DNA of 64,000 nt, from assembly GCF_029227855.1 (NCBI RefSeq), contig NZ_CP074358.1; one strand, 5' to 3'. Of this stretch, positions 28,861-64,000 are shown one piece after another (the stretch's first letter is position 1; each line of letters starts with the position of its first letter). This stretch comes from Escherichia coli. Lineage in GTDB: Bacteria > Pseudomonadota > Gammaproteobacteria > Enterobacterales > Enterobacteriaceae. The translations under genes and the position numbers were made by a program. The notes below the pieces were generated by a model, which worked only from the letters and a program-made list of their open reading frames with translations, was not told where the DNA came from and did not search any database.

Positions 28861-28863
28861 CTA

Positions 28864-31335: not shown

Positions 31336-31356
31336 AACTGATACCAGGATTGTTAT

Positions 31357-34065: not shown

Positions 34066-34645
34066 TATGTCGTCCCGTCAGGCGTGCCATGCCGCCCGGT
34101 ATGTTGTCGCCCGGGTTCTGCGAGGACTGTTCTGGTGTCTGAAGTACACCGTCATTCTGCCACTGGCCACAATGGCCCTGATGGCTCTGTTTGTTTTATG
34201 GAAGGACAACACCACGCCGGGGAAATTACTGGTTAAGGAGATTAACTTCGTAAGACAAACAGCACCTGCCGGACAGTTCCCGGTCAGTGAATGCTGGTTT
34301 TCTTCCTCTGATTCTTCAGGCAGATCAGAAATACAGGATATCTGCCATTACCGCGCGGCTGATGCTGCAGATTATGTCAGGGAGACTGACCGGTCACTGA
34401 TGCAACTGGTCACCGCATTATGGGCAACACTGGCACTGATGTATGTCTCGCTGGCAGCGATCACCGGGAAATATCCGGTGCGACCCGGAAAAATGAAATG
34501 TATCCGGGTGGTAACCGCAGATGAACATCTGAAGGAAGTTTATACGGAAGACGCTTCCCTGCCGGGAAAAATCAGGAAATGCCCTGCTTATCTTCCTGAT
34601 GACAGAACAAACAGAAACAACGGAGATAAAAATGAACATGCGTAA
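34055..34645 (+). CDS. traP: TraP
   Basis: 196 aa membrane protein in F position. Confidence 0.8.
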   Translation: MANNMSSRQACHAARYVVARVLRGLFWCLKYTVILPLATMALMALFVLWKDNTTPGKLLVKEINFVRQTAPAGQFPVSECWFSSSDSSGRSEIQDICHYRAADAADYVRETDRSLMQLVTALWATLALMYVSLAAITGKYPVRPGKMKCIRVVTADEHLKEVYTEDASLPGKIRKCPAYLPDDRTNRNNGDKNEHA

Positions 34646-34829
34646 TATTAATGTTATTACAGCCCTCTCTGTGCCAGGTAAAACCGTGTCAGATGATTTT
34701 ATGCATGCTGTTCTCTGTAACTGCGCCACAAGAATCGTACTTCCTGCACCGGAGAAATTCGGTTCTGAGTCATTGCCGGACAATTTTAATATGACTGCTG
34801 TCGGTGTGATGAAGAATTCAGAAATATAA
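34632..34829 (+). CDS. trbD: TrbD (65 aa)
   Basis: Start moved to MNMRNINV (ATG 34632); F order. Confidence 0.65.
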   Translation: MNMRNINVITALSVPGKTVSDDFMHAVLCNCATRIVLPAPEKFGSESLPDNFNMTAVGVMKNSEI

Positions 34830-34840
34830 GGAACCCTTCG

Positions 34841-35092
34841 ATGAATAAGCTGGTTTCTGATGGCAGCGTCAAAAAAATAAATTATCCGGTGCTGTATGAG
34901 TCCGGAATAACACCTCCGTTATGTGAAGTCAGTGCACCAGAACCTGATGCGGGGGGAAAACGCATTGTGGCATATGTTTATAAATCATCACGGAGTACGG
35001 TTTTTGAAAATCCTGACATTGTAAAAACCTGTACGGTCAGGGATTTGAAGAAGGATTTTGTGAACTGCGATGAGAAAGGTGAGGGACAATGA
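34841..35092 (+). CDS. trbG: TrbG (83 aa)
   Basis: Size and position as in F. Confidence 0.7.
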   Translation: MNKLVSDGSVKKINYPVLYESGITPPLCEVSAPEPDAGGKRIVAYVYKSSRSTVFENPDIVKTCTVRDLKKDFVNCDEKGEGQ

Positions 35093-35604
35093 AACAGATT
35101 TCTTTATTTATTCCTCTGCTGGGGACCTTATTACTTTCCGGCTGTGCCGGAACCAGTACGGAATTTGAGTGTAACGCCACCACATCCGATACCTGTATGA
35201 CGATGGAGCAGGCCAATGAGAAGGCCAAAAAACTGGAGCAGTCCTCAGAAGCAAAGCCGGTTGCGGCATCACTGCCGCGCCTGGCTGAAGGGAACTTCCG
35301 GACAATGCCGGTGCAGACCGTCACCGCGACCACTCCGTCCGGCAGCAGACCTGCGGTGACAGCACATCTGGAGCAGAAACTGCTGGTACCACGCCCGCTG
35401 TTTACCGCTGCCCGGGAAGTGAAAACGGTTGTTCCGGTCAGTTCAGTTACGCCGGTAACACCTCCTCGTCCGCTAAGAACGGGTGAGCAGACGGCAGCAT
35501 TATGGATAGCGCCTTATATTGATAACCAGGATGTTTATCATCAGCCATCCAGCGTGTTTTTTGTTATTAAACCGTCTGCGTGGGGAAAACCACGTATTAA
35601 TTAA
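35089..35604 (+). CDS. traV: TraV outer-membrane lipoprotein
   Basis: Lipobox LLLSGCAG; 171 aa. Confidence 0.9.
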   Translation: MKQISLFIPLLGTLLLSGCAGTSTEFECNATTSDTCMTMEQANEKAKKLEQSSEAKPVAASLPRLAEGNFRTMPVQTVTATTPSGSRPAVTAHLEQKLLVPRPLFTAAREVKTVVPVSSVTPVTPPRPLRTGEQTAALWIAPYIDNQDVYHQPSSVFFVIKPSAWGKPRIN

Positions 35605-35738
35605 CTGGCCCTGAAGTTGTATATCAGCCGGCAATGCCGGCGGGCTTTCTGTATTCAAAATCTGCCTGTAAAACGAGTGCCCTGTGCGTGAAAAGGGATG
35701 GGCGGTAGCGTGTCAGAACATGTCGGGAGGAATATTCC

Positions 35739-35960
35739 GTGAGTGATGAAGCCGATGAAGCATATTCAGTGACAGAACAACTGACCATGACAGGAATAAA
35801 CCGGATACGCCAGAAAATAAATGCTCATGGTATTCCTGTTTATCTCTGTGAAGCATGCGGAAATCCTATTCCGGAAGCCCGGCGGAAAATATTTCCCGGT
35901 GTGACGTTGTGCGTTGAATGTCAGGCGTATCAGGAAAGACAGAGAAAACATTATGCATAA
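35739..35960 (+). CDS. traR: TraR (DksA/TraR zinc-finger family)
   Basis: C4 zinc finger CEACGNPIPE...CVECQ; 73 aa. Confidence 0.9.
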   Translation: MSDEADEAYSVTEQLTMTGINRIRQKINAHGIPVYLCEACGNPIPEARRKIFPGVTLCVECQAYQERQRKHYA

Positions 35961-36119
35961 GTCAGTCGCAGAACATAGTGATTTAATTCCGGATGAACAT
36001 GAGTGGATATTCAGAAAACAGAAATCTTTGTATATGCGCCGGGAAATGGCGCGTTAATTACAGGTATTCCCTTCATGGCTACCGCATTTCTCGCTTTATT
36101 TTTCAACTAAGGAATTCAT

Positions 36120-38747
36120 GTGAATAACCCACTTGAGGCCGTCACTCAGGCGGTTAACTCCCTCGTCACAGCACTGAAACTGCCTGACGAATCCGCAAAG
36201 GCCAATGAAGTTCTGGGCGAAATGAGCTTCCCGCAGTTCAGCCGTCTGCTGCCGTACCGTGATTACAACCAGGAATCCGGTCTGTTCATGAATGACACCA
36301 CGATGGGCTTTATGCTGGAAGCCATCCCCATCAATGGGGCGAATGAGTCCATTGTGGAGGCCCTCGATCACATGCTGCGCACCAAACTGCCGCGCGGTAT
36401 TCCGTTGTGTATCCATCTGATGTCCAGTCAGCTGGTTGGTGACAGGATTGAATACGGGCTGCGTGAGTTCTCCTGGTCAGGTGAACAGGCTGAACGGTTT
36501 AACGCCATTACCCGGGCCTATTATATGAAAGCGGCAGCGACACAGTTTCCGCTGCCGGAGGGGATGAATCTGCCCCTGACCCTGCGCCATTACCGGGTGT
36601 TTATCTCGTACTGTTCTCCTTCGAAGAAAAAAAGCCGGGCCGACATTCTGGAAATGGAAAACCTGGTGAAAATCATCCGGGCGTCGTTACAGGGGGCCAG
36701 TATCACCACACAGACGGTGGATGCACAGGCCTTTATCGATATTGTCGGGGAGATGATTAACCATAACCCGGACTCCCTGTACCCGAAAAGACGTCAGCTG
36801 GACCCGTATTCTGATCTGAATTATCAGTGTGTGGAGGACAGTTTTGATCTGAAAGTCCGGGCTGATTACCTGACGCTGGGCCTGCGTGAGAACGGCAGGA
36901 ACAGCACGGCCCGCATCCTGAATTTCCATCTGGCCCGTAACCCGGAAATCGCCTTCCTGTGGAACGTGGCCGACAACTACAGCAACCTGCTGAACCCGGA
37001 ACTGTCCATCTCCTGTCCGTTCATCCTGACGCTGACTCTGGTGGTGGAAGACCAGGTGAAAACCCACAGCGAAGCCAACCTGAAGTACATGGACCTGGAG
37101 AAAAAGTCGAAGACCTCCTATGCCAAATGGTTTCCGTCCGTGGAGAAAGAGGCGAAGGAGTGGGGGGAACTGCGTCAGCGGCTGGGCTCCGGTCAGTCCT
37201 CCGTGGTGTCCTACTTCCTCAACATCACAGCATTCTGCAAGGACAATAATGAAACGGCGCTGGAAGTGGAGCAGGACATCCTGAACAGCTTTCGTAAAAA
37301 CGGTTTTGAGCTGATTTCACCGCGCTTTAACCACATGCGCAATTTCCTGACCTGCCTGCCCTTTATGGCCGGGAAAGGGCTGTTTAAACAGCTGAAAGAG
37401 GCCGGAGTGGTTCAGCGCGCAGAGAGCTTTAATGTTGCCAACCTGATGCCGTTAGTGGCGGATAACCCCCTGACACCGGCAGGTCTGCTGGCACCCACCT
37501 ACCGTAACCAGCTGGCGTTTATCGATATTTTCTTCCGGGGGATGAATAACACCAACTACAACATGGCGGTCTGTGGCACCTCCGGGGCCGGTAAAACCGG
37601 GCTGATACAGCCACTTATCCGCAGCGTGCTGGACTCCGGAGGCTTTGCCGTGGTGTTCGACATGGGGGATGGATACAAGTCCCTGTGTGAGAACATGGGC
37701 GGGGTGTATCTGGACGGTGAAACCCTGCGTTTTAACCCGTTTGCGAACATCACCGATATTGACCAGTCAGCGGAGCGTGTCCGTGACCAGTTGTCAGTGA
37801 TGGCCAGCCCCAACGGTAACCTGGATGAAGTGCATGAAGGTCTGCTGTTGCAGGCGGTCAGAGCCTCCTGGCTGGCCAAAGAGAACAGAGCACGTATTGA
37901 TGACGTGGTGGATTTCCTGAAAAACGCCAGTGACAGCGAGCAGTATGCCGAGTCACCGACTATCCGCAGCCGTCTGGACGAAATGATTGTGCTGCTTGAC
38001 CAGTACACTGCCAACGGCACTTACGGCCAGTATTTTAACTCTGATGAGCCGTCCCTGCGGGATGACGCAAAAATGGTGGTGCTGGAGCTGGGCGGACTGG
38101 AAGACCGTCCGTCACTGCTGGTTGCGGTGATGTTCTCCCTGATTATCTACATCGAGAACAGGATGTACCGCACGCCGCGTAACCTCAAGAAACTGAACGT
38201 TATTGATGAAGGCTGGCGTCTGCTGGACTTCAAAAATCACAAGGTCGGTGAATTTATTGAGAAAGGCTACCGTACGGCCCGCCGTCATACCGGTGCCTAT
38301 ATCACCATCACACAGAACATCGTCGACTTTGACTCTGATAAGGCCTCCAGTGCTGCCCGCGCGGCATGGGGTAACTCCTCCTACAAAATTATCCTCAAAC
38401 AGAGTGCGAAGGAGTTCGCGAAATACAACCAACTGTATCCGGACCAGTTCCTGCCACTGCAGCGCGACATGATTGGTAAGTTTGGTGCGGCCAAAGACCA
38501 GTGGTTCAGTTCCTTCCTGCTGCAGGTGGAAAACCATTCCTCCTGGCACCGTCTGTTTGTGGACCCGTTAAGCCGCGCCATGTACAGCTCTGACGGCCCG
38601 GATTTTGAGTTTGTGCAGCAGAAGCGTAAAGAGGGGCTGAGTATTCATGAGGCGGTGTGGCAGCTGGCGTGGAAGAAGTCAGGGCCGGAGATGGCTTCGC
38701 TGGAAGCCTGGCTGGAAGAACATGAGAAATACAGGAGTGTTGCATGA
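36120..38747 (+). CDS. traC: TraC (VirB4-like) T4SS ATPase
   Basis: 875 aa; Walker A CGTSGAGKTG; GTG start. Confidence 0.95.
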   Translation: MNNPLEAVTQAVNSLVTALKLPDESAKANEVLGEMSFPQFSRLLPYRDYNQESGLFMNDTTMGFMLEAIPINGANESIVEALDHMLRTKLPRGIPLCIHLMSSQLVGDRIEYGLREFSWSGEQAERFNAITRAYYMKAAATQFPLPEGMNLPLTLRHYRVFISYCSPSKKKSRADILEMENLVKIIRASLQGASITTQTVDAQAFIDIVGEMINHNPDSLYPKRRQLDPYSDLNYQCVEDSFDLKVRADYLTLGLRENGRNSTARILNFHLARNPEIAFLWNVADNYSNLLNPELSISCPFILTLTLVVEDQVKTHSEANLKYMDLEKKSKTSYAKWFPSVEKEAKEWGELRQRLGSGQSSVVSYFLNITAFCKDNNETALEVEQDILNSFRKNGFELISPRFNHMRNFLTCLPFMAGKGLFKQLKEAGVVQRAESFNVANLMPLVADNPLTPAGLLAPTYRNQLAFIDIFFRGMNNTNYNMAVCGTSGAGKTGLIQPLIRSVLDSGGFAVVFDMGDGYKSLCENMGGVYLDGETLRFNPFANITDIDQSAERVRDQLSVMASPNGNLDEVHEGLLLQAVRASWLAKENRARIDDVVDFLKNASDSEQYAESPTIRSRLDEMIVLLDQYTANGTYGQYFNSDEPSLRDDAKMVVLELGGLEDRPSLLVAVMFSLIIYIENRMYRTPRNLKKLNVIDEGWRLLDFKNHKVGEFIEKGYRTARRHTGAYITITQNIVDFDSDKASSAARAAWGNSSYKIILKQSAKEFAKYNQLYPDQFLPLQRDMIGKFGAAKDQWFSSFLLQVENHSSWHRLFVDPLSRAMYSSDGPDFEFVQQKRKEGLSIHEAVWQLAWKKSGPEMASLEAWLEEHEKYRSVA

Positions 38748-39130
38748 GTTCAACGCAGAAACCCGCCGACGTCACGGCAGAACGACGCAGCCACTGGTGG
38801 TGGAAGGTGCCGGGATGCCTGGCAATGGTGTTACTGAACGCAGCCGTCAGTTACGGCATTGTCAGACTGAACGCACCGGTGACTGTCGCCTTCAACATGA
38901 AACAGACCGTGGATGCGTTTTTTGACAGCGCCAGTCAGAAACAACTGTCAGAAGCGCAGTCAAAAGCCCTTTCAGCGCGTTTTAACACGGCACTGGAAGC
39001 CAGCCTGCAGGCGTGGCAGCAGAAACACCACGCGGTCATTCTGGTGTCGCCTGCTGTGGTACAGGGGGCACCGGATATCACCCGGGAAATCCAGCAGGAT
39101 ATTGCCCGGCGAATGAGGGCGGAACCATGA
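38744..39130 (+). CDS. trbI: TrbI
   Basis: 128 aa, N-terminal TM; F order. Confidence 0.85.
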   Translation: MSSTQKPADVTAERRSHWWWKVPGCLAMVLLNAAVSYGIVRLNAPVTVAFNMKQTVDAFFDSASQKQLSEAQSKALSARFNTALEASLQAWQQKHHAVILVSPAVVQGAPDITREIQQDIARRMRAEP

Positions 39131-47183: not shown

Positions 47184-50002
47184 ATGAAGTTTATGTGATT
47201 GCCGGTGGTGAGTGGTTGCGGAATAACCTGAACGCCATTGCCGCCTTTATGGGAACCAGGACGTGGGATTCCATTGAAAAAATTGCGCTCACATTGTCTG
47301 TTCTCGCGGTGGCCGTGATGTGGGTACAGCGGCACAACGTGATGGATTTGCTGGGCTGGGTGGCCGTGTTTGTGCTTATCAGCCTGCTGGTTAATGTCCG
47401 CACATCGGTGCAGATTATTGATAACAGTGACCTGGTCAAAGTTCACCGGGTGGATAATGTACCGGTCGGACTGGCGATGCCACTTTCACTGACGACCCGT
47501 ATCGGGCATGCAATGGTGGCCAGTTACGAGATGATCTTCACGCAACCGGACAGTGTCACCTACAGCAAAACGGGGATGCTGTTTGGCGCAGAACTGGTAT
47601 CAAAAAGCACCGACTTTTTGTCCCGCAATCCGGAAATCGCCAATCTTTTCCAGGATTATGTGCAGAACTGCGTGATGGGGGATATTTACCTGAACCACAA
47701 ATACACGCTGGAGGAGCTGATGGCCTCCGCTGATCCCTACACGCTGATTTTTTCCCGCCCCAGTCCGCTACGGGGCGTTTATGACAGCAATAATAATTTC
47801 GTGACCTGTAAGGACGCGTCGGTTTCGCTGAAAGACAAGCTGAATCTGGATACACAGAGTGGCGGAAAAACCTGGCATTATTATGCCCAGCAGCTATTTG
47901 GTGGACGCCCTGATCCGAACCTGTTGTTCAGTACGCTGATTGGCGACAGTTACAGTTACTTCTATGGCTCAAGTAAATCAGCCAGCCAGATCATCCGCCA
48001 GAATGTCACCATCAATGCGCTGAAGGAGGGGATCACCAGTTATGCCGCGCGTAATGGTGATTCAGCCAGCCTGGTGAATCTGGCCACCACGTCATCGATG
48101 GAGAAGCAACGTCTGGCACATGTCTCCATCGGTCATGTGGCGATGCGGACACTGCCCATGACGCAGACCATCCTGACGGGGATCGCCATCGGTATTTTCC
48201 CGCTTCTGGTACTGGCGGTTGTCTTCAACAAACTGACGCTATCCGTCCTGAAAGGCTATGTGTTTGCCCTGATGTGGTTGCAGTCATGGCCAATGTTGTA
48301 CGCCATTCTGAACAGCGCCATGACATTTTATGCGAAGCAGAATGGTGCACCGGTGGTGCTCTCGGAAATTTCACAGATACAGCTGAAATACTCCGATCTG
48401 GCTTCCACTGCCGGGTATCTTTCCATGATGATCCCGCCATTATCCTGGATGATGGTCAGGGGACTCGGGGCCGGATTTTCCAGTGTGTACAGCCATTTCG
48501 CTTCCTCTGCTATCAGCCCGACTGCCAGTGCGGCAGGTAGTGTGGTTGACGGTAATTACTCCTACGGCAACATGCAGACGGAAAACGTGAACGGCTTCAG
48601 CTGGAGCACCAACAGCACCACGTCGTTTGGTCAGATGATGTACCAGACCGGCAGTGGCGCAACCGCCACACAGACCCGTGACGGTAATATGGTGATGGAT
48701 GCGAGCGGGGCGATGTCCCGTTTACCGGTCGGTATCAATGCAACGCGTCAGATTGCGGCGGCACAACAGGAAATGGCCCGGGAGGCGTCGAACAGAGCAG
48801 AAAGCGCCCTGCATGGGTTCAGCAGCAGTATTGCCAGTGCCTGGAACTCGCTCAGTCAGTTTGGTTCTAACCGGGGGAGCAGTGATTCTGTCACCGGTGG
48901 TGCTGACAGCACGATGAGCGCACAGGACTCCATGATGGCCAGCCGTATGCGCAGCGCAGTGGAAAGCTATGCGAAGGCGCATAATATCAGTAATGAGCAG
49001 GCGACAAGAGAACTGGCATCAAGAAGTACGAGAGGTTCTGCGGGGATGTATGGCGATGCTCATGCTGAATGGGGGGTTAAACCTAAAATTCTTGGTGTTG
49101 GTGGTGGCGTAGGTGTTAGAGGTGGTGGTCGGGCAAGTATTGACTGGAGTGATGAGGATGCGCATCAGGCCAGCAGTGGTTCACGGGCCAGCCATGATGC
49201 TCGCCATGATATCGATGCCAGGGCTACACAAGACTTTAAAGAGGCCAGCGATTACTTTACCAGTCGCAAGGTCAGTGAATCCGGCAGCCATACGGACAAT
49301 AATGCCGATTCCCGTGTGGACCAGCTGTCTGCAGCCCTGAACTCAGCAAAACAGAGTTACGACCAGTACACGACGAATATGACCCGCAGCCATGAATATG
49401 CTGAAATGGCATCCCGTACTGAAAGCATGAGTGGGCAGATGAGTGAAGACCTGTCGCAACAGTTTGCACAGTATGTGATGAAACACGCGCCGCAGGATGC
49501 CGAAGCTATTCTGACAAACACCAGTTCACCGGAGATTGCAGAACGCCGTCGGGCTATGGCGTGGTCTTTCGTTCAGGAACAGGTGCAGCCTGGTGTTGAT
49601 AATGCCTGGCGTGAATCCCGTGGGGACATCGGTAAAGGAATGGAGAGCGTACCTTCGGGGGGGGGCAGCCAGGATATTATTGCTGATTATCAGGGGCATC
49701 AGGCCATTATTGAGCAAAGAACGCAGGACAGTAATATCCGTAATGATGTAAAACATCAGGTTGATAATATGGTCACAGAATACCGAGGCAATATCGGAGA
49801 TACTCAGAGCAGCATACGTGGCGAAGAAAATATTGTAGGAAGACAGTATTCTGAACTACAAAATCACCATAAAACAGAGGCATTATCTCAGAATAATAAA
49901 TATAATGAAGAAAAATCGGGTCAGGAAAGAATGCCCGGGGCTGACAGTCCACAGGAACTGATGAAAAGAGCAAAGGAGTATCAGGATAAGCACAAGCAAT
50001 AA
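47180..50002 (+). CDS. traG: TraG (F-type, VirB6-like N-terminal domain plus mating-pair stabilisation/entry-exclusion C-terminal domain)
   Basis: 940 aa; polytopic N-terminal half, hydrophilic C-terminal half. Confidence 0.95.
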   Translation: MNEVYVIAGGEWLRNNLNAIAAFMGTRTWDSIEKIALTLSVLAVAVMWVQRHNVMDLLGWVAVFVLISLLVNVRTSVQIIDNSDLVKVHRVDNVPVGLAMPLSLTTRIGHAMVASYEMIFTQPDSVTYSKTGMLFGAELVSKSTDFLSRNPEIANLFQDYVQNCVMGDIYLNHKYTLEELMASADPYTLIFSRPSPLRGVYDSNNNFVTCKDASVSLKDKLNLDTQSGGKTWHYYAQQLFGGRPDPNLLFSTLIGDSYSYFYGSSKSASQIIRQNVTINALKEGITSYAARNGDSASLVNLATTSSMEKQRLAHVSIGHVAMRTLPMTQTILTGIAIGIFPLLVLAVVFNKLTLSVLKGYVFALMWLQSWPMLYAILNSAMTFYAKQNGAPVVLSEISQIQLKYSDLASTAGYLSMMIPPLSWMMVRGLGAGFSSVYSHFASSAISPTASAAGSVVDGNYSYGNMQTENVNGFSWSTNSTTSFGQMMYQTGSGATATQTRDGNMVMDASGAMSRLPVGINATRQIAAAQQEMAREASNRAESALHGFSSSIASAWNSLSQFGSNRGSSDSVTGGADSTMSAQDSMMASRMRSAVESYAKAHNISNEQATRELASRSTRGSAGMYGDAHAEWGVKPKILGVGGGVGVRGGGRASIDWSDEDAHQASSGSRASHDARHDIDARATQDFKEASDYFTSRKVSESGSHTDNNADSRVDQLSAALNSAKQSYDQYTTNMTRSHEYAEMASRTESMSGQMSEDLSQQFAQYVMKHAPQDAEAILTNTSSPEIAERRRAMAWSFVQEQVQPGVDNAWRESRGDIGKGMESVPSGGGSQDIIADYQGHQAIIEQRTQDSNIRNDVKHQVDNMVTEYRGNIGDTQSSIRGEENIVGRQYSELQNHHKTEALSQNNKYNEEKSGQERMPGADSPQELMKRAKEYQDKHKQ

Positions 50003-51535: not shown

Positions 51536-53725
51536 ATGAGTTTTAACGCAAAGGATATGACCCAGGGCGGTCAGATTGCGTCCATGCGTATCCGCATGTT
51601 CAGCCAGATCGCCAATATCATGCTTTACTGCCTGTTTATTTTTTTCTGGATACTCGTTGGTCTGGTTTTATGGGTAAAAATAAGCTGGCAGACGTTTGTG
51701 AACGGCTGTATTTACTGGTGGTGTACCACGCTGGAAGGCATGCGGGATTTAATCAAGTCCCAGCCGGTCTATGAGATCCAGTATTACGGCAAAACCTTCC
51801 GGATGAATGCTGCTCAGGTACTGCATGATAAATATATGATCTGGTGCGGAGAGCAGCTATGGTCCGCATCCGTTCTGGCCACAGTTGTGGCACTGGTTAT
51901 TTGCCTGATTACCTTCTTTGTTGTCTCCTGGATTCTGGGGCGTCAGGGTAAACAACAGAGCGAAAATGAAGTCACAGGTGGTCGTCAGCTGACAGACAAT
52001 CCGAAAGACGTTGCCCGGATGCTGAAAAAAGACGGCAAGGACTCCGATATCCGGATTGGCGACCTGCCGATTATCCGGGATTCTGAAATCCAGAACTTCT
52101 GTCTGCACGGCACGGTCGGGGCCGGTAAGTCGGAAGTTATCCGTCGTCTGGCCAACTACGCCCGTCAGCGCGGTGATATGGTGGTGATTTATGACCGTTC
52201 AGGGGAATTTGTTAAAAGTTACTATGATCCCTCCATCGATAAGATCCTGAATCCGCTGGATGCCCGCTGTGCCGCCTGGGATTTATGGAAGGAGTGTCTG
52301 ACACAGCCGGATTTTGATAATACGGCAAATACCCTGATCCCGATGGGCACAAAAGAGGACCCGTTCTGGCAGGGTTCAGGACGTACCATTTTTGCGGAAG
52401 CGGCGTACCTGATGCGTAATGACCCCAACCGCAGCTACAGCAAACTGGTGGACACACTGCTTTCCATCAAAATCGAAAAACTGCGTACCTTCCTGCGTAA
52501 TTCACCGGCGGCCAACCTGGTGGAAGAGAAAATTGAGAAAACGGCGATTTCCATCCGTGCTGTGCTGACCAACTACGTGAAAGCCATCCGTTACCTGCAG
52601 GGGATTGAGCATAACGGTGAGTCTTTTACCATCCGTGACTGGATGCGGGGTGTCCGGGAAGATCAGAAAAACGGCTGGCTGTTTATCTCGTCGAATGCCG
52701 ACACCCATGCCTCCCTGAAGCCGGTGATCTCCATGTGGCTGTCCATTGCCATTCGTGGTCTGCTGGCAATGGGAGAAAACCGTAACCGTCGTGTGTGGTT
52801 TTTCTGTGATGAGCTACCCACGTTACACAAACTGCCGGACCTGGTGGAGATCCTGCCGGAAGCCCGTAAGTTCGGTGGCTGTTATGTGTTTGGTATCCAG
52901 TCCTATGCCCAGCTGGAAGATATCTACGGTGAGAAAGCGGCTGCCACGCTGTTTGACGTCATGAACACCCGTGCCTTTTTCCGTTCTCCCAGCCATAAGA
53001 TTGCAGAGTTCGCTGCCGGTGAGATTGGTGAGAAAGAGCACCTGAAAGCCAGCGAGCAGTACTCCTACGGTGCTGATCCGGTACGTGACGGGGTATCGAC
53101 CGGTAAGGATATGGAGCGCCAGACGCTGGTCAGTTATTCCGACATTCAGTCTCTGCCGGATTTGACCTGTTATGTCACCCTGCCCGGACCGTATCCGGCA
53201 GTAAAACTCTCACTGAAATATCAGGCACGTCCGAAGGTTGCCCCTGAGTTTATTCCGCGTGACATCAACCCGGAAATGGAGAACCGCCTGAGCGCCGTAC
53301 TTGCCGCAAGGGAAGCAGAAGGTCGTCAGATGGCCAGCCTCTTCGAACCGGATGTGCCGGAAGTTGTTTCCGGAGAAGACGTGACTCAGGCTGAACAGCC
53401 GCAACAGCCGCAACAGCCGCAACAGCCGCAACAGCCGCAACAGCCGGTGTCTCCTGCCATCAACGATAAGAAGTCAGATTCAGGTGTGAATGTTCCGGCA
53501 GGGGGGATCGAGCAGGAGCTGAAAATGAAACCGGAAGAAGAGATGGAACAGCAACTGCCACCCGGGATCAGTGAATCCGGTGAAGTGGTGGATATGGCCG
53601 CTTATGAGGCATGGCAACAGGAAAATCATCCGGACATCCAGCAGCAGATGCAGCGTCGTGAAGAGGTGAACATTAATGTGCACCGGGAGCGCGGGGAGGA
53701 TGTTGAGCCGGGAGATGATTTCTGA
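51536..53725 (+). CDS. traD: TraD type IV coupling protein
   Basis: 729 aa; N-terminal TM segments, Walker [10 protein letters not shown]-terminal (QQP)n tail. Confidence 0.95.
53393..53446 (+). repeat. 9-bp tandem repeat (caacagccg x6, first unit gaacagccg) encoding the TraD QQP tail
   Basis: Read directly from sequence; translates to [18 protein letters not shown]. Confidence 0.9.
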
Positions 53726-56700
53726 TGATGAGTATCGCGCAGGTCAGATCGGCCGGAAGTGCCGGTAACTATTATACCGACAAGGATAATTACTATGTGC
53801 TGGGCAGCATGGGAGAACGCTGGGCCGGCAGGGGGGCTGAACAGCTGGGACTGCAGGGCAGTGTCGATAAGGATGTTTTTACCCGTCTTCTGGAGGGAAG
53901 GCTGCCGGACGGAGCGGATCTAAGCCGCATGCAGGATGGCAGTAACAGGCATCGTCCCGGCTACGACCTGACCTTCTCCGCCCCCAAAAGTGTCTCCATG
54001 ATGGCCATGTTAGGTGGCGATAAGCGCCTGATTGATGCACATAACCAGGCCGTGAACTTTGCTGTTCGTCAGGTGGAGGCGCTGGCCTCCACACGGGTGA
54101 TGACGGACGGACAGTCAGAAACGGTGCTGACCGGTAATCTGGTGATGGCACTGTTTAACCACGACACCAGTCGCGATCAGGAACCACAGTTACACACGCA
54201 TGCGGTGGTGGCTAATGTCACGCAGCATAACGGTGAGTGGAAGACACTGAGCAGTGACAAAGTGGGGAAAACGGGGTTCATTGAGAATGTGTACGCTAAT
54301 CAGATTGCCTTTGGCAGGCTCTATCGGGAAAAACTGAAAGAGCAGGTTGAGGCGCTGGGCTATGAAACCGAAGTGGTGGGTAAGCACGGTATGTGGGAGA
54401 TGCCGGGCGTACCGGTGGAGGCCTTTTCCGGACGCTCACAGGCTATCCGAGAGGCCGTCGGGGAAGATGCCTCGCTGAAATCCCGGGATGTGGCGGCACT
54501 GGATACGCGAAAATCCAAACAGCACGTCGATCCTGAAGTCAGAATGGCTGAATGGATGCAGACGCTGAAGGAAACCGGGTTCGACATCCGGGCATATCGT
54601 GACGCGGCGGATCAGCGTGCGGAGACCCGCACGCAGGCGCCCGGGGCTGTTTCACTGGAGGGGCCGGATGTGCAGCAGGCGGTGACACAGGCGATTGCCG
54701 GATTAAGTGAACGAAAAGTGCAGTTTACGTACACGGACGTGCTGGCCAGAACAGTCGGCATACTGCCGCCGGAAAATGGTGTGATTGAACGGGCACGCGC
54801 CGGTATCGATGAGGCCATCAGCCGTGAGCAGCTCATCCCCCTCGATCGTGAGAAGGGGCTGTTCACGTCCGGGATTCATGTGCTCGATGAGCTGTCAGTC
54901 CGGGCACTCAGTCGTGACATCATGAAACAGAACCGGGTGACCGTACATCCGGAGAAAAGTGTCCCCCGGACGGCCGGTTACAGCGATGCGGTCAGTGTTT
55001 TGGCACAGGATCGCCCGTCGCTGGCTATTGTGTCCGGGCAGGGCGGTGCAGCCGGGCAGCGTGAGCGGGTGGCGGAGCTGGTCATGATGGCCCGGGAGCA
55101 GGGGCGGGAGGTGCAGATTATCGCCGCTGACCGTCGCTCGCAGATGAACCTGAAGCAGGATGAACGGCTGTCCGGTGAGCTGATAACCGGACGTCGTCAG
55201 CTGCAGGAGGGCATGGCCTTCACGCCGGGCAATACTGTTATCGTTGACCAGGGCGAAAAACTCTCCCTGAAAGAGACGTTAACCCTGCTGGACGGTGCTG
55301 CACGTCATAACGTACAGGTCCTGATAACCGACAGCGGGCAGCGAACCGGTACAGGCAGTGCACTGATGGCCATGAAAGATGCCGGGGTGAACACATATCG
55401 CTGGCAGGGGGGAGAACAGCGGCCGGCCACCATCATCAGTGAACCGGACCGTAATGTCCGCTATGCCCGGCTGGCAGGAGATTTTGCGGCCAGCGTGAAA
55501 GCCGGAGAAGAGAACGTGGCACAGGTCAGCGGGGTACGGGAACAGGCCATACTGACACAGGCCATTCGCAGTGAGCTGAAAACACAGGGCGTGCTCGGAC
55601 GCCCGGAGGTAACCATGACCGCCCTGTCGCCGGTCTGGCTGGACAGCCGGAGCCGTTATCTGCGGGATATGTACCGTCCGGGGATGGTGATGGAGCAGTG
55701 GAACCCGGAGACACGCAGTCATGACCGCTATGTTATCGACCGGGTGACGGCGCAGAGTCACAGCCTGACCCTGCGGGATGCGCAGGGTGAAACGCAGGTG
55801 GTGCGTATTTCCTCCCTGGACAGCAGCTGGTCGCTGTTCCGGCCGGAAAAAATGCCGGTGGCAGACGGCGAGCGACTGAGGGTGACAGGGAAAATTCCCG
55901 GACTCCGCGTCTCCGGCGGTGACCGCCTGCAGGTGGCATCCGTCAGTGAAGATGCGATGACGGTTGTTGTGCCGGGGCGGGCTGAACCGGCCTCCCTGCC
56001 TGTGAGCGATTCACCATTCATGGCACTGAAGCTGGAGAACGGCTGGGTGGAAACGCCAGGGCATTCCGTCAGCGACAGTGCGACGGTTTTTGCCTCCGTC
56101 ACACAGATGGCAATGGACAATGCCACCCTGAACGGTCTGGCCCGCAGTGGTCGTGATGTCCGGCTGTATTCCTCACTGGATGAAACCCGTACTGCGGAAA
56201 AACTTGCCCGCCATCCCTCCTTTACGGTGGTTTCTGAGCAGATAAAGGCGCGTGCCGGTGAGACATTGCTGGAAACCGCTATCAGTCTGCAGAAAGCCGG
56301 ACTTCACACGCCGGCACAGCAGGCCATTCATCTGGCCCTTTCTGTGGTGGAAAGTAAAAACCTGGCCTTCAGCATGGTGGACCTGCTGACAGAGGCGAAG
56401 TCGTTTGCTGCAGAAGGAACCAGTTTTGTTGACCTGGGACGGGAAATCAATACGCAGATAAAACGCGGTGATTTACTGCATGTGGATGTGGCAAAAGGCT
56501 ATGGCACAGACCTGCTGGTTTCCCGTGCGTCGTATGAGGCAGAAAAGAGCATTCTTCGCCATATTCTCGAAGGTAAGGAGGCGGTCACGCCGCTGATGGA
56601 GAGAGTACCTGGCGAACTCATGGAGAAACTGACATCAGGACAGCGTGCCGCCACCCGCATGATACTGGAAACGTCCGACCGTTTCACGGTGGTGCAGGGC

Positions 56701-58995
56701 TATGCCGGTGTGGGTAAGACCACACAGTTCCGGGCGGTGATGTCAGCCGTGAACATGCTGCCGGAGAGAGAGCGTCCCCGTGTCGTTGGGCTGGGGCCCA
56801 CGCACCGTGCGGTCGGGGAGATGCGCAGTGCCGGCGTGGATGCGCAGACACTGGCGTCTTTTCTGCATGACACGCAGCTGCAGCAGCGCAGCGGAGAAAC
56901 GCCGGATTTCAGCAACACGCTGTTCCTGCTTGATGAGAGCTCAATGGTGGGCAATACCGACATGGCACGGGCATACGCCCTGATTGCGGCCGGTGGCGGT
57001 CGTGCTGTGGCCAGCGGCGACACGGACCAGCTGCAGGCCATCGCGCCCGGTCAGCCTTTCCGTCTCCAGCAGACGCGCAGTGCTGTCGATGTGGCCATCA
57101 TGAAGGAGATTGTGCGTCAGACGCCGGAACTGCGGGAGGCGGTATACAGCCTGATTAACCGGGATGTGGAAAGGGCACTGTCCGGGCTTGAGAGTGTGAA
57201 ACCGTCTCAGGTGCCACGTCAGGAGGGCGCATGGGCACCGGAGCACTCCGTGACGGAGTTCAGTCACAGCCAGGAAGCGAAACTGGCAGAAGCGCAGCAG
57301 AAGTCGATGCTGAAAGGCGAGGCTTTCCCGGATGTCCCCATGACACTGTATGAAGCCATTGTCCGCGACTATACCGGCAGGACACCGAAAGCACGGGAGC
57401 AGACGCTTATTGTCACGCACCTGAATGAGGACCGGCGCGTGCTGAACAGCATGATTCATGATGCACGGGAAAAGGCCGGTGAGCTGGGGCAGGAGCAGGT
57501 CATGGTGCCTGTCCTGAACACAGCGAATATACGCGACGGGGAGTTGCGTCGTCTCTCCACCTGGGAGACACATCGGGACGCACTTGCCCTGGTGGATAAT
57601 GTGTATCACCGGATTGCCGGTATCAGCAAGGATGACGGGCTGATAACCCTGCAGGATGCGGAAGGTAACACGCGGCTGATTTCGCCCCGGGAGGCGGTGG
57701 CTGAAGGCGTCACACTGTACACTCCGGACACCATCCGGGTGGGAACCGGTGACCGGATGCGCTTCACGAAGAGTGACCGGGAGCGCGGTTATGTGGCCAA
57801 CAGCGTCTGGACGGTGACAGCGGTTTCCGGTGACAGTGTCACGCTGTCGGACGGACAGCAGACCCGGGTGATTCGCCCCGGTCAGGAGCGGGCAGAGCAA
57901 CATATTGACCTGGCCTATGCCATCACCGCCCACGGTGCGCAGGGGGCAAGTGAAACCTTTGCCATTGCGCTTGAAGGCACGGAAGGTAACCGGAAACAGA
58001 TGGCCGGCTTTGAGTCAGCCTACGTGGCCCTGTCGCGTATGAAGCAGCATGTGCAGGTGTATACCGATAACCGTCAGGGCTGGACGGATGCCATTAACAA
58101 TGCCGTACAGAAAGGAACTGCCCACGATGTGCTTGAGCCGAAATCGGACCGGGAGGTCATGAATGCAGAGCGGCTGTTCAGTACGGCGCGGGAGCTGCGG
58201 GACGTGGCGGCCGGCCGTGCCGTTCTCCGTCAGGCAGGGCTGGCCGGGGGAGACAGTCCTGCACGGTTTATTGCACCCGGGCGCAAATATCCGCAGCCGT
58301 ATGTGGCACTGCCGGCTTTTGACCGTAACGGCAAGTCAGCAGGTATCTGGCTGAACCCGCTGACCACGGATGACGGAAATGGGCTGCGGGGCTTCAGTGG
58401 TGAAGGCCGGGTGAAAGGCAGCGGGGATGCGCAGTTCGTGACCCTGCAGGGCAGCCGTAACGGAGAGAGCCTGCTGGCTGATAATATGCAGGATGGTGTC
58501 CGGATTGCCCGTGATAATCCTGACAGCGGTGTGGTGGTAAGAATCGCCGGTGAAGGTCGTCCGTGGAATCCCGGTACCATCACCGGTGGTCGCGTGTGGG
58601 GGGATATCCCGGACAACAGCGTTCAGCCGGGAGCCGGAAATGGCGAACCGGTCACGGCAGAGGTACTGGCACAGCGGCAGGCTGAAGAGGCCATCCGCCG
58701 TGAAACGGAACGCCGTGCGGATGAAATTGTCCGTAAAATGGCAGAGAACAAACCTGACCTGCCGGACGGCAAAACAGAGCAGGCTGTCAGGGATATTGCC
58801 GGGCTGGAGCGTGACCGATCTGCCATATCTGAACGGGAAGCCGCGCTGCCGGAGAGTGTACTGCGTGAACCACAACGGGTGCGGGAAGCGGTCCGGGAGG
58901 TCGCCCGGGAAAATCTGCTGCAGGAGCGACTGCAGCAGATGGAGCGGGATATGGTTCGTGACCTGCAGAAAGAGAAAACCCTGGGCGGAGACTGA
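53725..58995 (+). CDS. traI: TraI relaxase-helicase (MobF family)
   Basis: 1756 aa; N-terminal relaxase (HTH...H.H motifs), two helicase regions with Walker A GYAGVGKTT; start overlaps traD stop (TGATG). Confidence 0.97.
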   Translation: MMSIAQVRSAGSAGNYYTDKDNYYVLGSMGERWAGRGAEQLGLQGSVDKDVFTRLLEGRLPDGADLSRMQDGSNRHRPGYDLTFSAPKSVSMMAMLGGDKRLIDAHNQAVNFAVRQVEALASTRVMTDGQSETVLTGNLVMALFNHDTSRDQEPQLHTHAVVANVTQHNGEWKTLSSDKVGKTGFIENVYANQIAFGRLYREKLKEQVEALGYETEVVGKHGMWEMPGVPVEAFSGRSQAIREAVGEDASLKSRDVAALDTRKSKQHVDPEVRMAEWMQTLKETGFDIRAYRDAADQRAETRTQAPGAVSLEGPDVQQAVTQAIAGLSERKVQFTYTDVLARTVGILPPENGVIERARAGIDEAISREQLIPLDREKGLFTSGIHVLDELSVRALSRDIMKQNRVTVHPEKSVPRTAGYSDAVSVLAQDRPSLAIVSGQGGAAGQRERVAELVMMAREQGREVQIIAADRRSQMNLKQDERLSGELITGRRQLQEGMAFTPGNTVIVDQGEKLSLKETLTLLDGAARHNVQVLITDSGQRTGTGSALMAMKDAGVNTYRWQGGEQRPATIISEPDRNVRYARLAGDFAASVKAGEENVAQVSGVREQAILTQAIRSELKTQGVLGRPEVTMTALSPVWLDSRSRYLRDMYRPGMVMEQWNPETRSHDRYVIDRVTAQSHSLTLRDAQGETQVVRISSLDSSWSLFRPEKMPVADGERLRVTGKIPGLRVSGGDRLQVASVSEDAMTVVVPGRAEPASLPVSDSPFMALKLENGWVETPGHSVSDSATVFASVTQMAMDNATLNGLARSGRDVRLYSSLDETRTAEKLARHPSFTVVSEQIKARAGETLLETAISLQKAGLHTPAQQAIHLALSVVESKNLAFSMVDLLTEAKSFAAEGTSFVDLGREINTQIKRGDLLHVDVAKGYGTDLLVSRASYEAEKSILRHILEGKEAVTPLMERVPGELMEKLTSGQRAATRMILETSDRFTVVQGYAGVGKTTQFRAVMSAVNMLPERERPRVVGLGPTHRAVGEMRSAGVDAQTLASFLHDTQLQQRSGETPDFSNTLFLLDESSMVGNTDMARAYALIAAGGGRAVASGDTDQLQAIAPGQPFRLQQTRSAVDVAIMKEIVRQTPELREAVYSLINRDVERALSGLESVKPSQVPRQEGAWAPEHSVTEFSHSQEAKLAEAQQKSMLKGEAFPDVPMTLYEAIVRDYTGRTPKAREQTLIVTHLNEDRRVLNSMIHDAREKAGELGQEQVMVPVLNTANIRDGELRRLSTWETHRDALALVDNVYHRIAGISKDDGLITLQDAEGNTRLISPREAVAEGVTLYTPDTIRVGTGDRMRFTKSDRERGYVANSVWTVTAVSGDSVTLSDGQQTRVIRPGQERAEQHIDLAYAITAHGAQGASETFAIALEGTEGNRKQMAGFESAYVALSRMKQHVQVYTDNRQGWTDAINNAVQKGTAHDVLEPKSDREVMNAERLFSTARELRDVAAGRAVLRQAGLAGGDSPARFIAPGRKYPQPYVALPAFDRNGKSAGIWLNPLTTDDGNGLRGFSGEGRVKGSGDAQFVTLQGSRNGESLLADNMQDGVRIARDNPDSGVVVRIAGEGRPWNPGTITGGRVWGDIPDNSVQPGAGNGEPVTAEVLAQRQAEEAIRRETERRADEIVRKMAENKPDLPDGKTEQAVRDIAGLERDRSAISEREAALPESVLREPQRVREAVREVARENLLQERLQQMERDMVRDLQKEKTLGGD

Positions 58996-59014: not shown

Positions 59015-59761
59015 ATGACAACGGATAACACGAACACAACACGTAATGATTCACTGGCTGCCCGGACCGATACTTGGTTGCAGTCGTTGCTGGTCTGGTC
59101 ACCCGGACAGCGGGATATCATCAAAACGGTGGCACTGGTGCTGATGGTTCTGGACCATGCAAACCGCATTCTACATCTGGACCTGTCGTGAATGTTTCTG
59201 GTCGGGCGTGGGGCCTTTCCGCTGTTTGCCCTGGTGTGGGGGCTGAATCTGTCCCGTCATACGCATATCCGGCAGGAGGCCATTAACCGGCTGTGGGGAT
59301 GGGCGGTGATTGCCCAGTTCGCATATTATCTGGCCGGCTTTCCCTGGTATGAGGGGAATATCCTGTTTGCCTTTGCAGTTGCGGCACAGGTGCTGACATG
59401 GTGTGAAACGCGCACCTGGTGGCGTTCCGCAGAGACCATGTTGCTTCTGGCAATGTGGTTACCTTTCTCCGGCACCAGTTACGGCATTGCCGGGCAGCTG
59501 ATGCTGGCAGTCAACCACAGGCTGTACCGGGCGGAAGACAGAATGGAACGTCTGGCGCTGGTCGCCTGCCTGCTGGCTGTTATTCCGGCGCTTAACCTTG
59601 CCACCAGTGATGCAGCGGCGGTGGCCGGCCTTGTGATGACGGTGCTGACCGTTGGTCTGGTGTCGTGTGCAGGAAAATCATTACCCCGTTTCTGGCCCGG
59701 GGATTTTTTCCCGACGTTCTATGCCTGTCATCTGGCTGTGCTGGGCGTTCTGGCGCTGTGA
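59015..59761 (+). pseudogene. traX: traX (F-pilin acetylase) interrupted by an in-frame TGA at codon 59 (59189-59191)
   Basis: 58-codon ORF from ATG 59015 and the 189-codon ORF 59192-59761 are contiguous in one frame, separated by a single TGA; together they give a TraX-sized polytopic membrane protein. Confidence 0.7.
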
Positions 59762-60376: not shown

Positions 60377-61233
60377 AAAAAAGCCTCCATCAGAGAGAGG
60401 AGGCAGGGAAATAAGGCTTAAAAGGAAATAACTTCCGTACCCGAAAGGAAGCCAGTCCACTGAATTATTTACCACAATAATACTGACGACTAAAAGGGAG
60501 GGGCAGAAAAATGAATGGATTCAGAAACAGTTCACGGAACGGTCAGGTCTGGCGCTGGCAGCGTGCCGGAAGCCGGGCCGTTATTCTGGAGGTCAGTGGA
60601 CGCTGGATGGATGCGGCAGAAGCATGGCGACGGGCTGCCGGTGTTGCGCCCCGGACAGACTGGCGGCAGTTTGCCCGAAAAAGGGCTGCACACTGCCACC
60701 GGCGCTGCCGGGGAAGGGTGTAACGAAAAAAGCAGCCTTCATTACTCCTGGAGTCAGAAGGCTGAATAATGCATGAGATTTACTTTTTTAATCTCCGGTC
60801 GGGTAGTATGACCGGACAACTCTGAGTAGCACAGAGTTTTTTTCCGTATTAAGTCGTGATTTTATATTTTGTGATTTATTTCACAAAATAAGGTGTTATT
60901 CAATGTGTGCTGCAATATTCAGGATGCCTGAAATACAGGTGCCATTTATTTGATATGGAGAATAACATGAGGGAATATATTCCACTGGTATTATTTATCT
61001 TTTCATAGCCGGTATTGTCTGCAGATATTTATGGGCAGGTTGTTCGTGTACTGGGCCAGCAGGAAAGTCTGTGCAGAAGCTTACGGTTTGAATAAGTTGA
61101 ACCCCATAAGACTCTGATTAATATAATTTGTGGCACACAGATACTTGCGGGAAAAGTGTTTCGCACTGAATCTTAACTGGAAATGTAAACTATTTTTAAC
61201 ACCCCCAAAATCCTTTTGGGGAACAACTCATGC

Positions 61234-61551
61234 TTACAATTTCTGCCCCATACATTTTCTCCAGGCACTCCCCTCATTACCATTGTCGAGGAACGTAGAG
61301 GTTGCATATGGAATGCCTCTGATTTTTGTTGATGTGAATGGGCCATCAGACGTCGAAGTTGTACGGAGTTTTGATGTTAGTACGTATTTACCACTTATGC
61401 CTTTCTCTGCCAGAGCTCTTGATTTTATGATAACTAAATCTGCACATTTCTCTGCGGCTACATATTGCGGGTCTTTTTCAACCTTTCCAGCACATGCAGT
61501 TATCGTTAAAACGGTAGCGGCGGCTAACAACTTACCTGGTTTCATCTTCAT
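61234..61551 (-). CDS. Putative lipoprotein (105 aa), unknown function
   Basis: Signal peptide with lipobox LTITACAG; modest RBS. Confidence 0.45.
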   Translation of the reverse strand: MKMKPGKLLAAATVLTITACAGKVEKDPQYVAAEKCADLVIIKSRALAEKGISGKYVLTSKLRTTSTSDGPFTSTKIRGIPYATSTFLDNGNEGSAWRKCMGQKL

Positions 61552-61888
61552 ACCTTATTGGGTGTATTAAAAACAGTAGGCTGCCAAAGTCTTAAACAAG
61601 TTTCAATTCTCCATGACTGCTCAACATCAGACAGAGGGAATTCCCATTCTGGACCAGCGGGAGCATACGAACAATAATTTACGGTTTCGCGCTATAGCTG
61701 GCTCAAGTTAGGTTGGACCCTGAATCTCCAGACAACCAATATCTGATCGCGCCAGTGGTGGCAGTTATTAAGCAACAGGGAATGTAGTATTATCGCGGCG
61801 GGTGTCTGAGCCTTTCTGGTTCAGGCAAGACGCAGGTACCAGAAATGCGAAGACCCCACTTGTTAATCCATTAACTCGTGAGGTCTGC

Positions 61889-62095
61889 ATGAAGTACCTT
61901 AACACTACTGATTGTAGCCTCTTCCTTGCAGAGAGGTCAAAGTTTATGACGAAATATGCCCTTATCGGGTTGCTCGCCGTGTGCGCCACGGTGTTGTGTT
62001 TTTCACTGATATTCAGGGAACGGTTATGTGAGCTGAATATTCACAGAGGAAATACAGTGGTGCAGGTAACTCTGGCCTACGAAGCACGGAAGTAA
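61889..62095 (+). CDS. srnB: SrnB/Hok-family membrane toxin (68-aa frame; Hok-like core from internal Met at 61946)
   Basis: MKYLNTTDCSLFLAERSKFMTKYALIGLLAVCATVLCFSLIFRERLCELNIHRGNTVVQVTLAYEARK; hairpin cggggac-ggaa-gtccccg downstream at ~62104-62128. Confidence 0.85.
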   Translation: MKYLNTTDCSLFLAERSKFMTKYALIGLLAVCATVLCFSLIFRERLCELNIHRGNTVVQVTLAYEARK

Positions 62096-62378
62096 GCTGC
62101 CGGGCGGGGACGGAAGTCCCCGCTTTCCGGAAGTGTGAGGTATTTCAGGGGCAGACACCCTATATACCAGAAACAGCCGGTCCCGCCCGGGGCCGGCACC
62201 CTGGCTAAGGCATTTCCAGCTTTTCAGTCATTTCATTATCAAAATCACATTAAACGGTCGTAATCAGACATGATTTGTGCGCCAACACAGATCATCGTCA
62301 CAACTTTCAAGTCGCTGATTTCAAAAAACTGTAGTATTCTCTGCGAAACGATCCCTGTTTGAGAATTGAGGAGGCGAG

Positions 62379-62636
62379 ATGTCGCAGACAGAAAATGCAG
62401 TGACTTCCTCATCAGGCACCAAGCGTACATACCGGAAAGGTAACCCTGTTCCGGCCAGAGAGAGGCAAAGAGCTTCTCTGGCTCGCAGAAGCAACACTCA
62501 TAAGGCTTTTCATGCGGTTATTCAGGCCCGGTTAAAAGACAGGCTGAGTGAACTGGCGGATGAGGAAGGTATTACTCAGGCGCAGATGCTTGAAAAACTG
62601 ATTGAATCAGAGCTGAAACGCAGAGCGACTTCGTAA
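62379..62636 (+). CDS. repA2: RepA2/CopB copy-number repressor of IncFII replicons
   Basis: 85 aa, [11 protein letters not shown]... with GITQAQ helix; gaggagg RBS. Confidence 0.85.
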
Positions 62637-62714
62637 ATATTCACATTCTTGCTTATCTCAGGAGTGAGTGGTAGATTGCTGATCGTTTAAGGAATTTTGT
62701 GGCTGGCCACGCCG

Positions 62715-62810
62715 TAAGGTGGCAGGGAACTGGTTCTGATGTGGATTTACAGGAGCCAGAAAAGTGAAAACCCCGATAATCTTCTCTAACTTTGGCGAGT
62801 CCAGAAAGAT
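62715..62810 (-). ncRNA. copA: CopA-like antisense RNA (approximate), targeting the repA1 leader (CopT)
   Basis: Located between copB and tap; sense strand carries tttggcg loop motif as in CopT; coordinates inferred. Confidence 0.4.
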
Positions 62811-62869
62811 TACCGGGGCTAACAAGAAACTGCATAGAAGCTGTTGCTCTATGCGGGGAGTATAGTTAT

Positions 62870-62944
62870 ATGCCCGGAAAAGTTCAAGACTTCTTTCTGT
62901 GCTCACTCCTTCTGTGCAACATAAGTGCAGGATGGTGTGACTGA
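62870..62944 (+). CDS. tap: Tap/RepA6 leader peptide (24 aa) translationally coupled to repA1
   Basis: [24 protein letters not shown]; stop TGA overlaps repA1 GTG start. Confidence 0.75.
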
Positions 62945-63794
62945 TCTTCAACAAACGTATTACCGCCAGGTAAAGAACCCGAATCCGGTGTTTACACCCC
63001 GTGAAGGAGCAGGAACGCTGCCGTTCTGCGAAAAACTCATGGAAAAGGCGGTGGACTTCACCTCCCGTTTTGATTTCGCCATTCATGTGGCGCATGCCCG
63101 TTCGCGTGGTCTGCGTCGGCGCATGCCACCGGTACTGCGTCGCCGGGCCATTGATGCGCTGCTGCAGGGGCTGTGTTTTCACTATGACCCGCTGGCCAAC
63201 CGCGTCCAGTGCTCCATCACCACGCTGGCCATTGAGTGCGGACTGGCGACGGAGTCTGCTGCCGGAACACTTTCCATCACCCGTGCCACCCGTGCCCTGA
63301 CGTTCCTGTCAGAGCTGGGATTGATTACCTATCAGACGGAATATGACCCGCTTATTGGCTGCTATATTCCGACCGACATCACGTTCACACCGGCGCTGTT
63401 TGCCGCTCTCGATATCTCAGAAGAGGCGGTGGCTTCCGCACGCCGCAGCCGTGTGGAATGGGAAAACAGACAGCGCAAAAAGCAGGGGCTGGATACCCTA
63501 GGTATGGATGAACTGATTGCGAAAGCCTGGCGTTTTGTGCGTGAGCGTTTCCGCAGTTACCAGACAGAGCTTAAGTCCCGGGGAATAAAGCGTGCCCGTG
63601 CGCGTCGTGATGCGAACAGGGAACGCCAGGATATCGTCACCCTGGTGAAACGACAGCTGACACGTGAAATCTCGGAAGGACGCTTCACTGCCAATCGTGA
63701 GGCGGTAAAACGCGAAGTGGAGCGTCGTGTGAAGGAGCGCATGATTCTGTCACGTAACCGTAATTACAGCCGGCTGGCCACAGCCTCCCCCTGA
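62937..63794 (+). CDS. repA1: RepA1 replication initiator of IncFII (RepFIIA) replicon
   Basis: GTG start at 62937; [39 protein letters not shown]... matches recalled RepA1. Confidence 0.9.
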
Positions 63795-63969
63795 ACCTGA
63801 CCTCCTCTGAATAATCCGGCCCGCGCCGGAGGCTTCCGCACGTCTGAAGCCCGATAGTGCACAAAAAAACAGCACCACATACAAAAAACAACCTCATCAT
63901 CCACCTTCAGGTGCATCCGGTTCCCCCTGTTTTTAATACAAAATACGCCTCAGCTATGGGGAATTTTGC

Positions 63970-63978
63970 TTATCCACA
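63970..63978 (+). promoter_or_regulatory. DnaA box TTATCCACA at the start of the vegetative origin downstream of repA1
   Basis: Exact consensus DnaA box about 175 bp after the repA1 stop; origin continues beyond window. Confidence 0.6.
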
Positions 63979-64000
63979 TTTAACTGCAAGGGACTTCCCC

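Follow-up and report, generated by a model that had tools for sequence, protein, structure and literature searches.

The right end of a 64,000-nt stretch of Escherichia coli DNA, referred to here as the window, carries a set of putative replication and control genes, and the question is what kind of replicon they form, whether this replicon is intact, and how far its family name says something about its incompatibility. A sequence-only reading had described the locus as the start of an IncFII (RepFIIA) replicon with copB, the CopA target region, the tap leader peptide, repA1 and a first DnaA box. All five elements were recovered, at the positions proposed for them or within one base, and the set is not a chance pattern. 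Our interpretation, to which we assign a probability of about 95%, is that an F-like conjugative plasmid carries here an intact theta replicon of the IncFII family (R1/R100 type), of which the locus comprises the control half and the initiator gene. It had also been regarded as known biology, and rightly so, since the replication-control module of F-like plasmids is well known. Mosaic IncFII-related replicons have long been described.

The replicon is part of an F-like conjugative plasmid

The window is part of an F-like conjugative plasmid. The first 25 kb contain pif genes, parM/stb, umuDC-like genes and the leading region with ssb and psiB. The traJ 5' UTR and FinP were located with Rfam at ~29.3 kb, and the tra operon continues through traI (53725-58995), followed by traX and finO. 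The segment from 25001 to 39000, which was covered by the Rfam scan only, yielded traJ/FinP and sok, and the segment from 39001 to 64000 contains tra genes and the IncFII-family replicon. At its start (1-3600), the window contains part of the pif region, with a pifA-like P-loop NTPase gene and pifC. On the F map pif adjoins RepFIA, and another replicon may therefore be located immediately outside this end. In the plasmid that matches window positions 1-24959, the annotation contains no further replicon.

Several other features were noted in the conjugative region. The pilin acetylase gene traX (59015-59761, + strand) has an in-frame stop at 59189-59191, corresponding to codon 59, where R100 TraX has a tryptophan. 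The reading around this stop is …LHLDLS* followed by MFLVGRGAFPLF…, and the remaining frame is intact. Given this stop, either traX is a pseudogene or the base is a sequencing error. Full-length antisense RNA family matches were obtained on the minus strand for AS-pc02 (60620-60802, 190.8 bits), located between finO and the hok locus, and for AS-traI (56574-56650), AS-traG (47899-47984) and AS-pc01 (17760-17859). Rfam lists AS-pc02 and AS-pc01 as RNAs that are antisense to pHK01 plasmid genes. A 105-aa ORF at 61234-61551 (- strand) with a lipoprotein-like N-terminus (MKMKPGKLLAAATVLTITAC...) gave no Pfam or NCBIfam match, and its counterpart in the annotation of both F and pRHB17-C12_2 is merely listed as "hypothetical protein".

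As in plasmid F, copB is immediately preceded by a hok-family type I toxin locus (61800-62095, + strand). It contains a mok-like overlapping frame and an Rfam match to sok (95.1 bits), which covers the leader of the toxin mRNA on the + strand. In the leading region, the sok family is matched once more, at 25162-25338. The upstream neighbours in R100 are different, namely hha and a DUF2726 gene.

CopB and the sense promoters

The ORF at 62379-62636 (+ strand) encodes the 85-aa CopB protein (RepA2), which by analogy represses transcription from the repA promoter and whose C-terminal part is RHH-like. The copB/repA2 assignment is borne out by Pfam family PF10723 (RepB-RCR_reg, E=3e-31) and by NCBIfam model PRK13702 ("replication regulatory protein RepA"; 132.9 bits, cutoff 87), both of which are above their cutoffs, and RHH_5 is matched weakly. 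The protein is 96% identical to CopB of the RepFIC replicon of F (NC_002483), and is thus of the FIC type. The identity is 61% with the CopB of Klebsiella pneumoniae FDAARGOS_443 unnamed2, an IncFII plasmid that differs from the window by a third CopB type, and 49% with CopB of R100. In fact, only the first 68 nt of copB align with R100. These are part of a block that is common to the window, R100 and F, and that consists of the region upstream of copB and the first ~23 copB codons. From ~62242 onward the three aligned sequences are nearly identical, whereas farther upstream R100 differs. By homology, the conserved stretch at 62242-62378 (+ strand) presumably contains P1, the promoter for constitutive copB transcription, as well as the ribosome-binding site of copB.

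The remainder of copB and the intergenic sequence up to the -10 element of the next promoter form a segment of the F type. A candidate for this repA promoter (P2), TTGCTT-17 nt-TAGATT, was read from the sequence at 62649-62677 (+ strand). The -10 element (TAGATT, 62672-62677) is conserved in R100 and F, as is everything downstream of it to the base of CopA stem-loop II. In contrast, the -35 side and the spacer co-vary with the CopB type, the window being the same as F and different from R100, as would be expected if the CopB operator lies there. A putative CopB operator would then overlap the -35 side of P2. A sigma-70 consensus scan missed both sense promoters, the P2 candidate with 8 of 12 consensus matches being under the scan threshold, and P1 and P2 were placed by homology only.

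The CopA antisense RNA is neither of the R100 nor of the F type

The gene for the antisense RNA CopA is located on the minus strand (62852..62762), and its + strand complement constitutes CopT in the repA mRNA leader. The CopA target region proposed from the sequence was confirmed by a full-length match (1-92) to Rfam family RF00042, with 89.6 bits compared to a gathering score of 60 (E=2e-16). CopA folds with an energy of -35.8 kcal/mol (z=-5.1), and none of 200 shuffled sequences was as stable. Its shape, a small 5' hairpin and a long bulged hairpin (two stem-loops) followed by a U-rich 3' tail, was kept in a consensus fold of six plasmids, with compensatory changes at 5 pairs, and the CopT loop core TTTGGCG is invariant across the six CopA variants. 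The consensus scan found a CopA promoter (TTGAAC-17 nt-TATACT; 62887..62859, - strand), which is the sole sigma-70-like site reported for 62100-64000, and the -10 element of which ends 7 nt before 62852, where the Rfam match to CopA begins, a distance as expected for the CopA promoter.

The CopA allele was compared with that of several plasmids. R100 CopA has 27 differences in 91 nt. Of these, 13 fall within the 21 nt of stem-loop I, and five, all in the upper stem, within the 29 nt that make up the upper stem and loop of stem-loop II. F CopA has 36 differences in 91 nt, 12 of which are in the same 29-nt part. Accordingly, the CopA/CopT specificity region does not match that of R1/R100, and the CopA loop is not of the FIC type. 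On the other hand, CopA is identical in pRHB17-C12_2 and J2 p3, and 1-3 nt differ in pTD225C4_139 and p504239_155, both E. coli stool-isolate plasmids, and in the K. pneumoniae plasmid FDAARGOS_443 unnamed2. In pRHB17-C12_2 and these last three plasmids, with 0-3 of 91 nt different from the window, stem-loop I is identical. Judged from these alignments, CopA is a member of a third, widespread class of IncFII CopA RNAs, distinct from those of R100 and F. It has been shown that three mismatches in the CopA loop sufficed to abolish displacement, and that few mismatches change displacement specificity (PMC6961859).

An IncI-like pseudoknot was also considered. The CopT strand gave a PK-repZ match in Rfam at 62766-62819, with only 25.3 bits compared to a cutoff of 44, and this candidate was rejected. 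The control of IncI/IncB-type replicons (repZ/repY, with Inc RNA) follows the same logic, combining an antisense RNA with leader-peptide coupling, but the initiator and leader found here belong to the IncFII families and not to RepZ/RepY, so this is a resemblance and not membership.

Tap, RepA1 and the origin flank

The tap leader peptide (62870-62944, + strand) consists of 24 codons plus a stop, with the ATG at 62870 and the TGA at 62942-62944. The 24-codon leader had been called tap-like, and this can be stated more firmly, since it scored 64.9 bits with the equivalog model TIGR03475 (tap_IncFII_lead; cutoff 35.05) and matched PF08048 (E=2.6e-14). Moreover, matching plasmids carry the same ORF annotated as tap. 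The Shine-Dalgarno sequence GGGGAG (62855-62860, + strand) is located 9 nt before the tap ATG and is invariant in all six aligned plasmids (6/6). The sequence begins 3 nt beyond the CopA/CopT duplex, a distance that fits a steric block of tap initiation.

The repA1 gene (62937-63794, + strand) encodes a replication initiator of 285 aa, and its GTG start (62937-62939) lies inside the end of tap, so that the two ORFs overlap by 8 nt, as in R100, and the tap stop follows 2 nt after the GTG. The ORF lister reaches an upstream GTG at 62925, but all related records annotate 62937 as the start. RepA1 passed the equivalog model TIGR03474 (incFII_RepA) with 579.3 bits (cutoff 446.9), covering 9-283 of the 285 aa, scored 618 bits with PRK13750 (cutoff 478), and also matched PF02387. 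The assignment as RepA1 is further supported by an alignment with R100 RepA1, which gives 96% aa identity, and the protein is 100% identical to RepA of pRHB17-C12_2. A predicted mRNA hairpin (62903-62940, + strand) encloses the repA1 Shine-Dalgarno sequence AGGA (62929-62932) and the GTG. The MFE and centroid folds of 62853-62975 both contain it, the energy of this stretch being no better than that of shuffled sequences (z=-0.84). This predicted hairpin would fit the coupling model of R1, for which it is weak evidence.

The consensus DnaA box TTATCCACA at 63970-63978 (+ strand) had been estimated to lie about 175 bp after repA1, and the distance to the repA1 stop is exactly 175 nt. Two more perfect TTATCCACA boxes occur in the window, at 11768-11776 (+ strand) and 26599-26607 (- strand), and the 9-mer by itself is weak evidence, with three in the window versus 0.4 expected. 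However, the box at 63970-63978 is invariant and occupies the same alignment column in R100, pRHB17-C12_2 and J2 p3. In addition, its flanks (GGGGAATTTTGCTTATCCACATTTAACTG) match mutagenesis primers for DnaA-box1 of R1, which has been placed in oriR1 (PMC5883639), and in IncFII replicons the DnaA box and oriR are located downstream of repA1 (PMC2762410). The window ends at 64000, ~20 nt past the box, and the remainder of the roughly 188-bp oriR lies beyond it; the oriR of R100 goes on with ...CATAAGGTTACAACCGTTCATGTCA. The spacer between repA1 and the origin (63795-63969, + strand) is 92% identical to the R100 stretch. We take it to be the equivalent of the CIS region of R1, its function being presumed from what is known of R1.

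Relatives and typing

At least 5000 PLSDB plasmids have a match to the 1.8-kb region. For 3471 of them, mainly of Escherichia, Klebsiella, Shigella and Salmonella, the match extends to 80% or more of the query. Among the complete E. coli genomes in RefSeq, 3607 of 5426 contain a match, with 4558 matching records in total. The matched genes are annotated as incFII family RepA, Tap and replication regulatory protein RepA. At the DNA level, the best-matching sequences belong to F-like plasmids in which incFII family RepA and Tap are annotated, and not to a non-FII replicon. The best full-length identity was 98.0% in PLSDB, with pRHB17-C12_2, among the matches listed, and 99.0% among RefSeq E. coli, with J2 p3. 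The copB gene, the intergenic region, CopA and tap of pRHB17-C12_2 are each 100% identical to the window at the nucleotide level, whereas repA1 (98.5%) and the origin flank (89.7%) differ. J2 p3 (NZ_CP195983.1) is a 47-kb plasmid with a frameshifted repA (3738-4596), the replicon of which is located beside IS1 and IS3 elements, with no tra region there.

The primers used for FII replicon sequence typing match exactly at 62679-62698 and 62922-62939, which delimits the amplicon to 62679-62939; both primer sequences occur in IncF typing papers. The FrepB primers, with their presumed sequences, match as well. For the FIC primers, likewise with presumed sequences, a site for the forward primer is present at 62548-62569 with 1 mismatch, and the reverse primer gave no match within 4 mismatches. 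The latter primer lies on the CopA loop of F. When 62681-62939 was used as amplicon query, 100% identical sequences were found in CP024976, CP057691 and OQ420463 in PLSDB, and CP051220 was 100% identical over 255 of 259 nt (98%), at the end of the record. The 95-99% identity band contains 1,275 PLSDB records, and pTD225C4_139, p504239_155 and the K. pneumoniae IncFII plasmid differ from the window at 2-5 amplicon positions. MOB-suite, according to PLSDB, labels the nearest plasmid IncFIA, IncFIB and IncFIC. These labels were rejected as typing evidence, since they are inconsistent, R100 itself, the IncFII prototype, being labelled IncFIA, and they neither support nor refute the IncFII-family assignment.

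Model for replication control

The roles of CopB, CopA/CopT and tap coupling have been worked out in the R1 model (PMC12361487, PMC5883639). The anatomy of the locus agrees with the R1/R100 model at every point, and the mechanism that we infer from R1/R100 would be as follows. A constitutive promoter upstream of copB would produce a copB-tap-repA1 mRNA, and a further repA promoter, stronger and located in the copB-copA interval, would be repressed by CopB. CopA, presumably made constitutively and unstable, would pair with CopT (62762-62852) in the mRNA leader. The resulting duplex, with its end immediately 5' of the ribosome-binding site of tap, would block tap translation. The Shine-Dalgarno sequence and GTG of repA1 would be hidden in the hairpin that overlaps the tap end, so that RepA1 would be made only when tap is translated, by translational coupling. 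RepA1 would then act in cis at oriR, which would start ~175 bp downstream of repA1 at the DnaA box. In such a system the copy number would be set by the CopA concentration, and CopA would be the main incompatibility determinant.

A mosaic replicon of the IncFII family

The order copB, CopA/CopT, tap, repA1 and DnaA box/oriR is that of the RepFIIA basic replicon of R100 (NR1) and R1, and gene order and spacing are as in R100 and in annotated IncFII plasmids. No observation speaks against the family assignment. However, the segments have different affinities, and the comparisons indicate a mosaic replicon composed of known sequence variants. The F-type segment with copB is followed by the CopA allele described above and by an R100-like segment, in which tap is 93% and repA1 93.7% identical to R100 at the nucleotide level, and the origin flank 92%. 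The combination of a F/RepFIC CopB with its operator, a CopA that is neither R100 nor F, and an R100-like RepA1 and origin flank is a rare allele, with an identity over the whole 1.8 kb of at most 98.0% among the PLSDB matches listed. The label RepFIIA that had been given to the locus therefore holds for the IncFII family and architecture and not in the strict R1/R100 sense, in view of the CopB of the F/RepFIC type and the CopA that differs from R100. Because of these two components, the label should be read as that of a family and, as far as the alignments indicate, not as R1/R100 incompatibility specificity. It is possible, though we consider it doubtful, that this recombinant replicon has an incompatibility specificity of its own and would be compatible with R1/R100 as well as with F-RepFIC plasmids.

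How close the locus is to F raises the question whether it should rather be regarded as a strict RepFIC replicon, as in F and P307, with FIC incompatibility specificity, and not as RepFIIA/IncFII. The CopB identity (96% with F versus 49% with R100) points in this direction, as do the copB-copA intergenic region, which is 97.6% identical to F, and the hok-family gene directly before copB, which is shared with F and not with R100, this gene and the intergenic region being 95-98% identical to F; the closest plasmid is also labelled IncFIC by MOB-suite. Yet 36 of 91 nt are different from F in CopA, by which FIC and FII are distinguished, and the FII primers match exactly while the presumed FIC reverse primer has no match within 4 mismatches. 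The initiator cannot be used for this comparison, since the RepFIC of F lacks repA1: BLAST found no match to repA1 there, and the region carries transposon-type genes, including a Tn3-like transposase, whereas the window copy is intact. Altogether, a strict RepFIC replicon is improbable.

The disrupted RepFIC of F also illustrates another explanation, namely that the replicon in the window is silent, a remnant such as the Tn1000-disrupted RepFIC of F, and that the plasmid is kept by a FIA or FIB replicon outside the window. F-like plasmids often contain multiple replicons, the closest relative is typed as a multi-replicon plasmid, and the window starts in the pif region, beside RepFIA on the F map. 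In addition, oriR extends beyond the window end, and the near-identical replicon of J2 p3 has a frameshifted repA. The replicon in the window, however, has only intact, full-length ORFs, the CopA structure and promoter are intact, and conservation extends to the DnaA box and its flank. Moreover, RepA1 is 100% identical to that of pRHB17-C12_2 despite 13 nt differences, and is therefore under purifying selection. We consider a remnant improbable, and favour an intact IncFII-family replicon. The possible presence of FIA or FIB replicons outside the window does limit the claim that the locus fixes the plasmid type: this stands for the FII component, and the rest of the type is not determined by it.

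The importance of these findings is limited to annotation and typing. They describe a functional-looking IncFII-family replicon on an F-like conjugative plasmid and delimit its FII typing amplicon to 62679-62939, and this is known biology that implies no new biology. Since CopB, CopA and RepA1 have different nearest relatives, incompatibility and curing should be predicted from the CopA allele and not from the match of RepA1 to R100.
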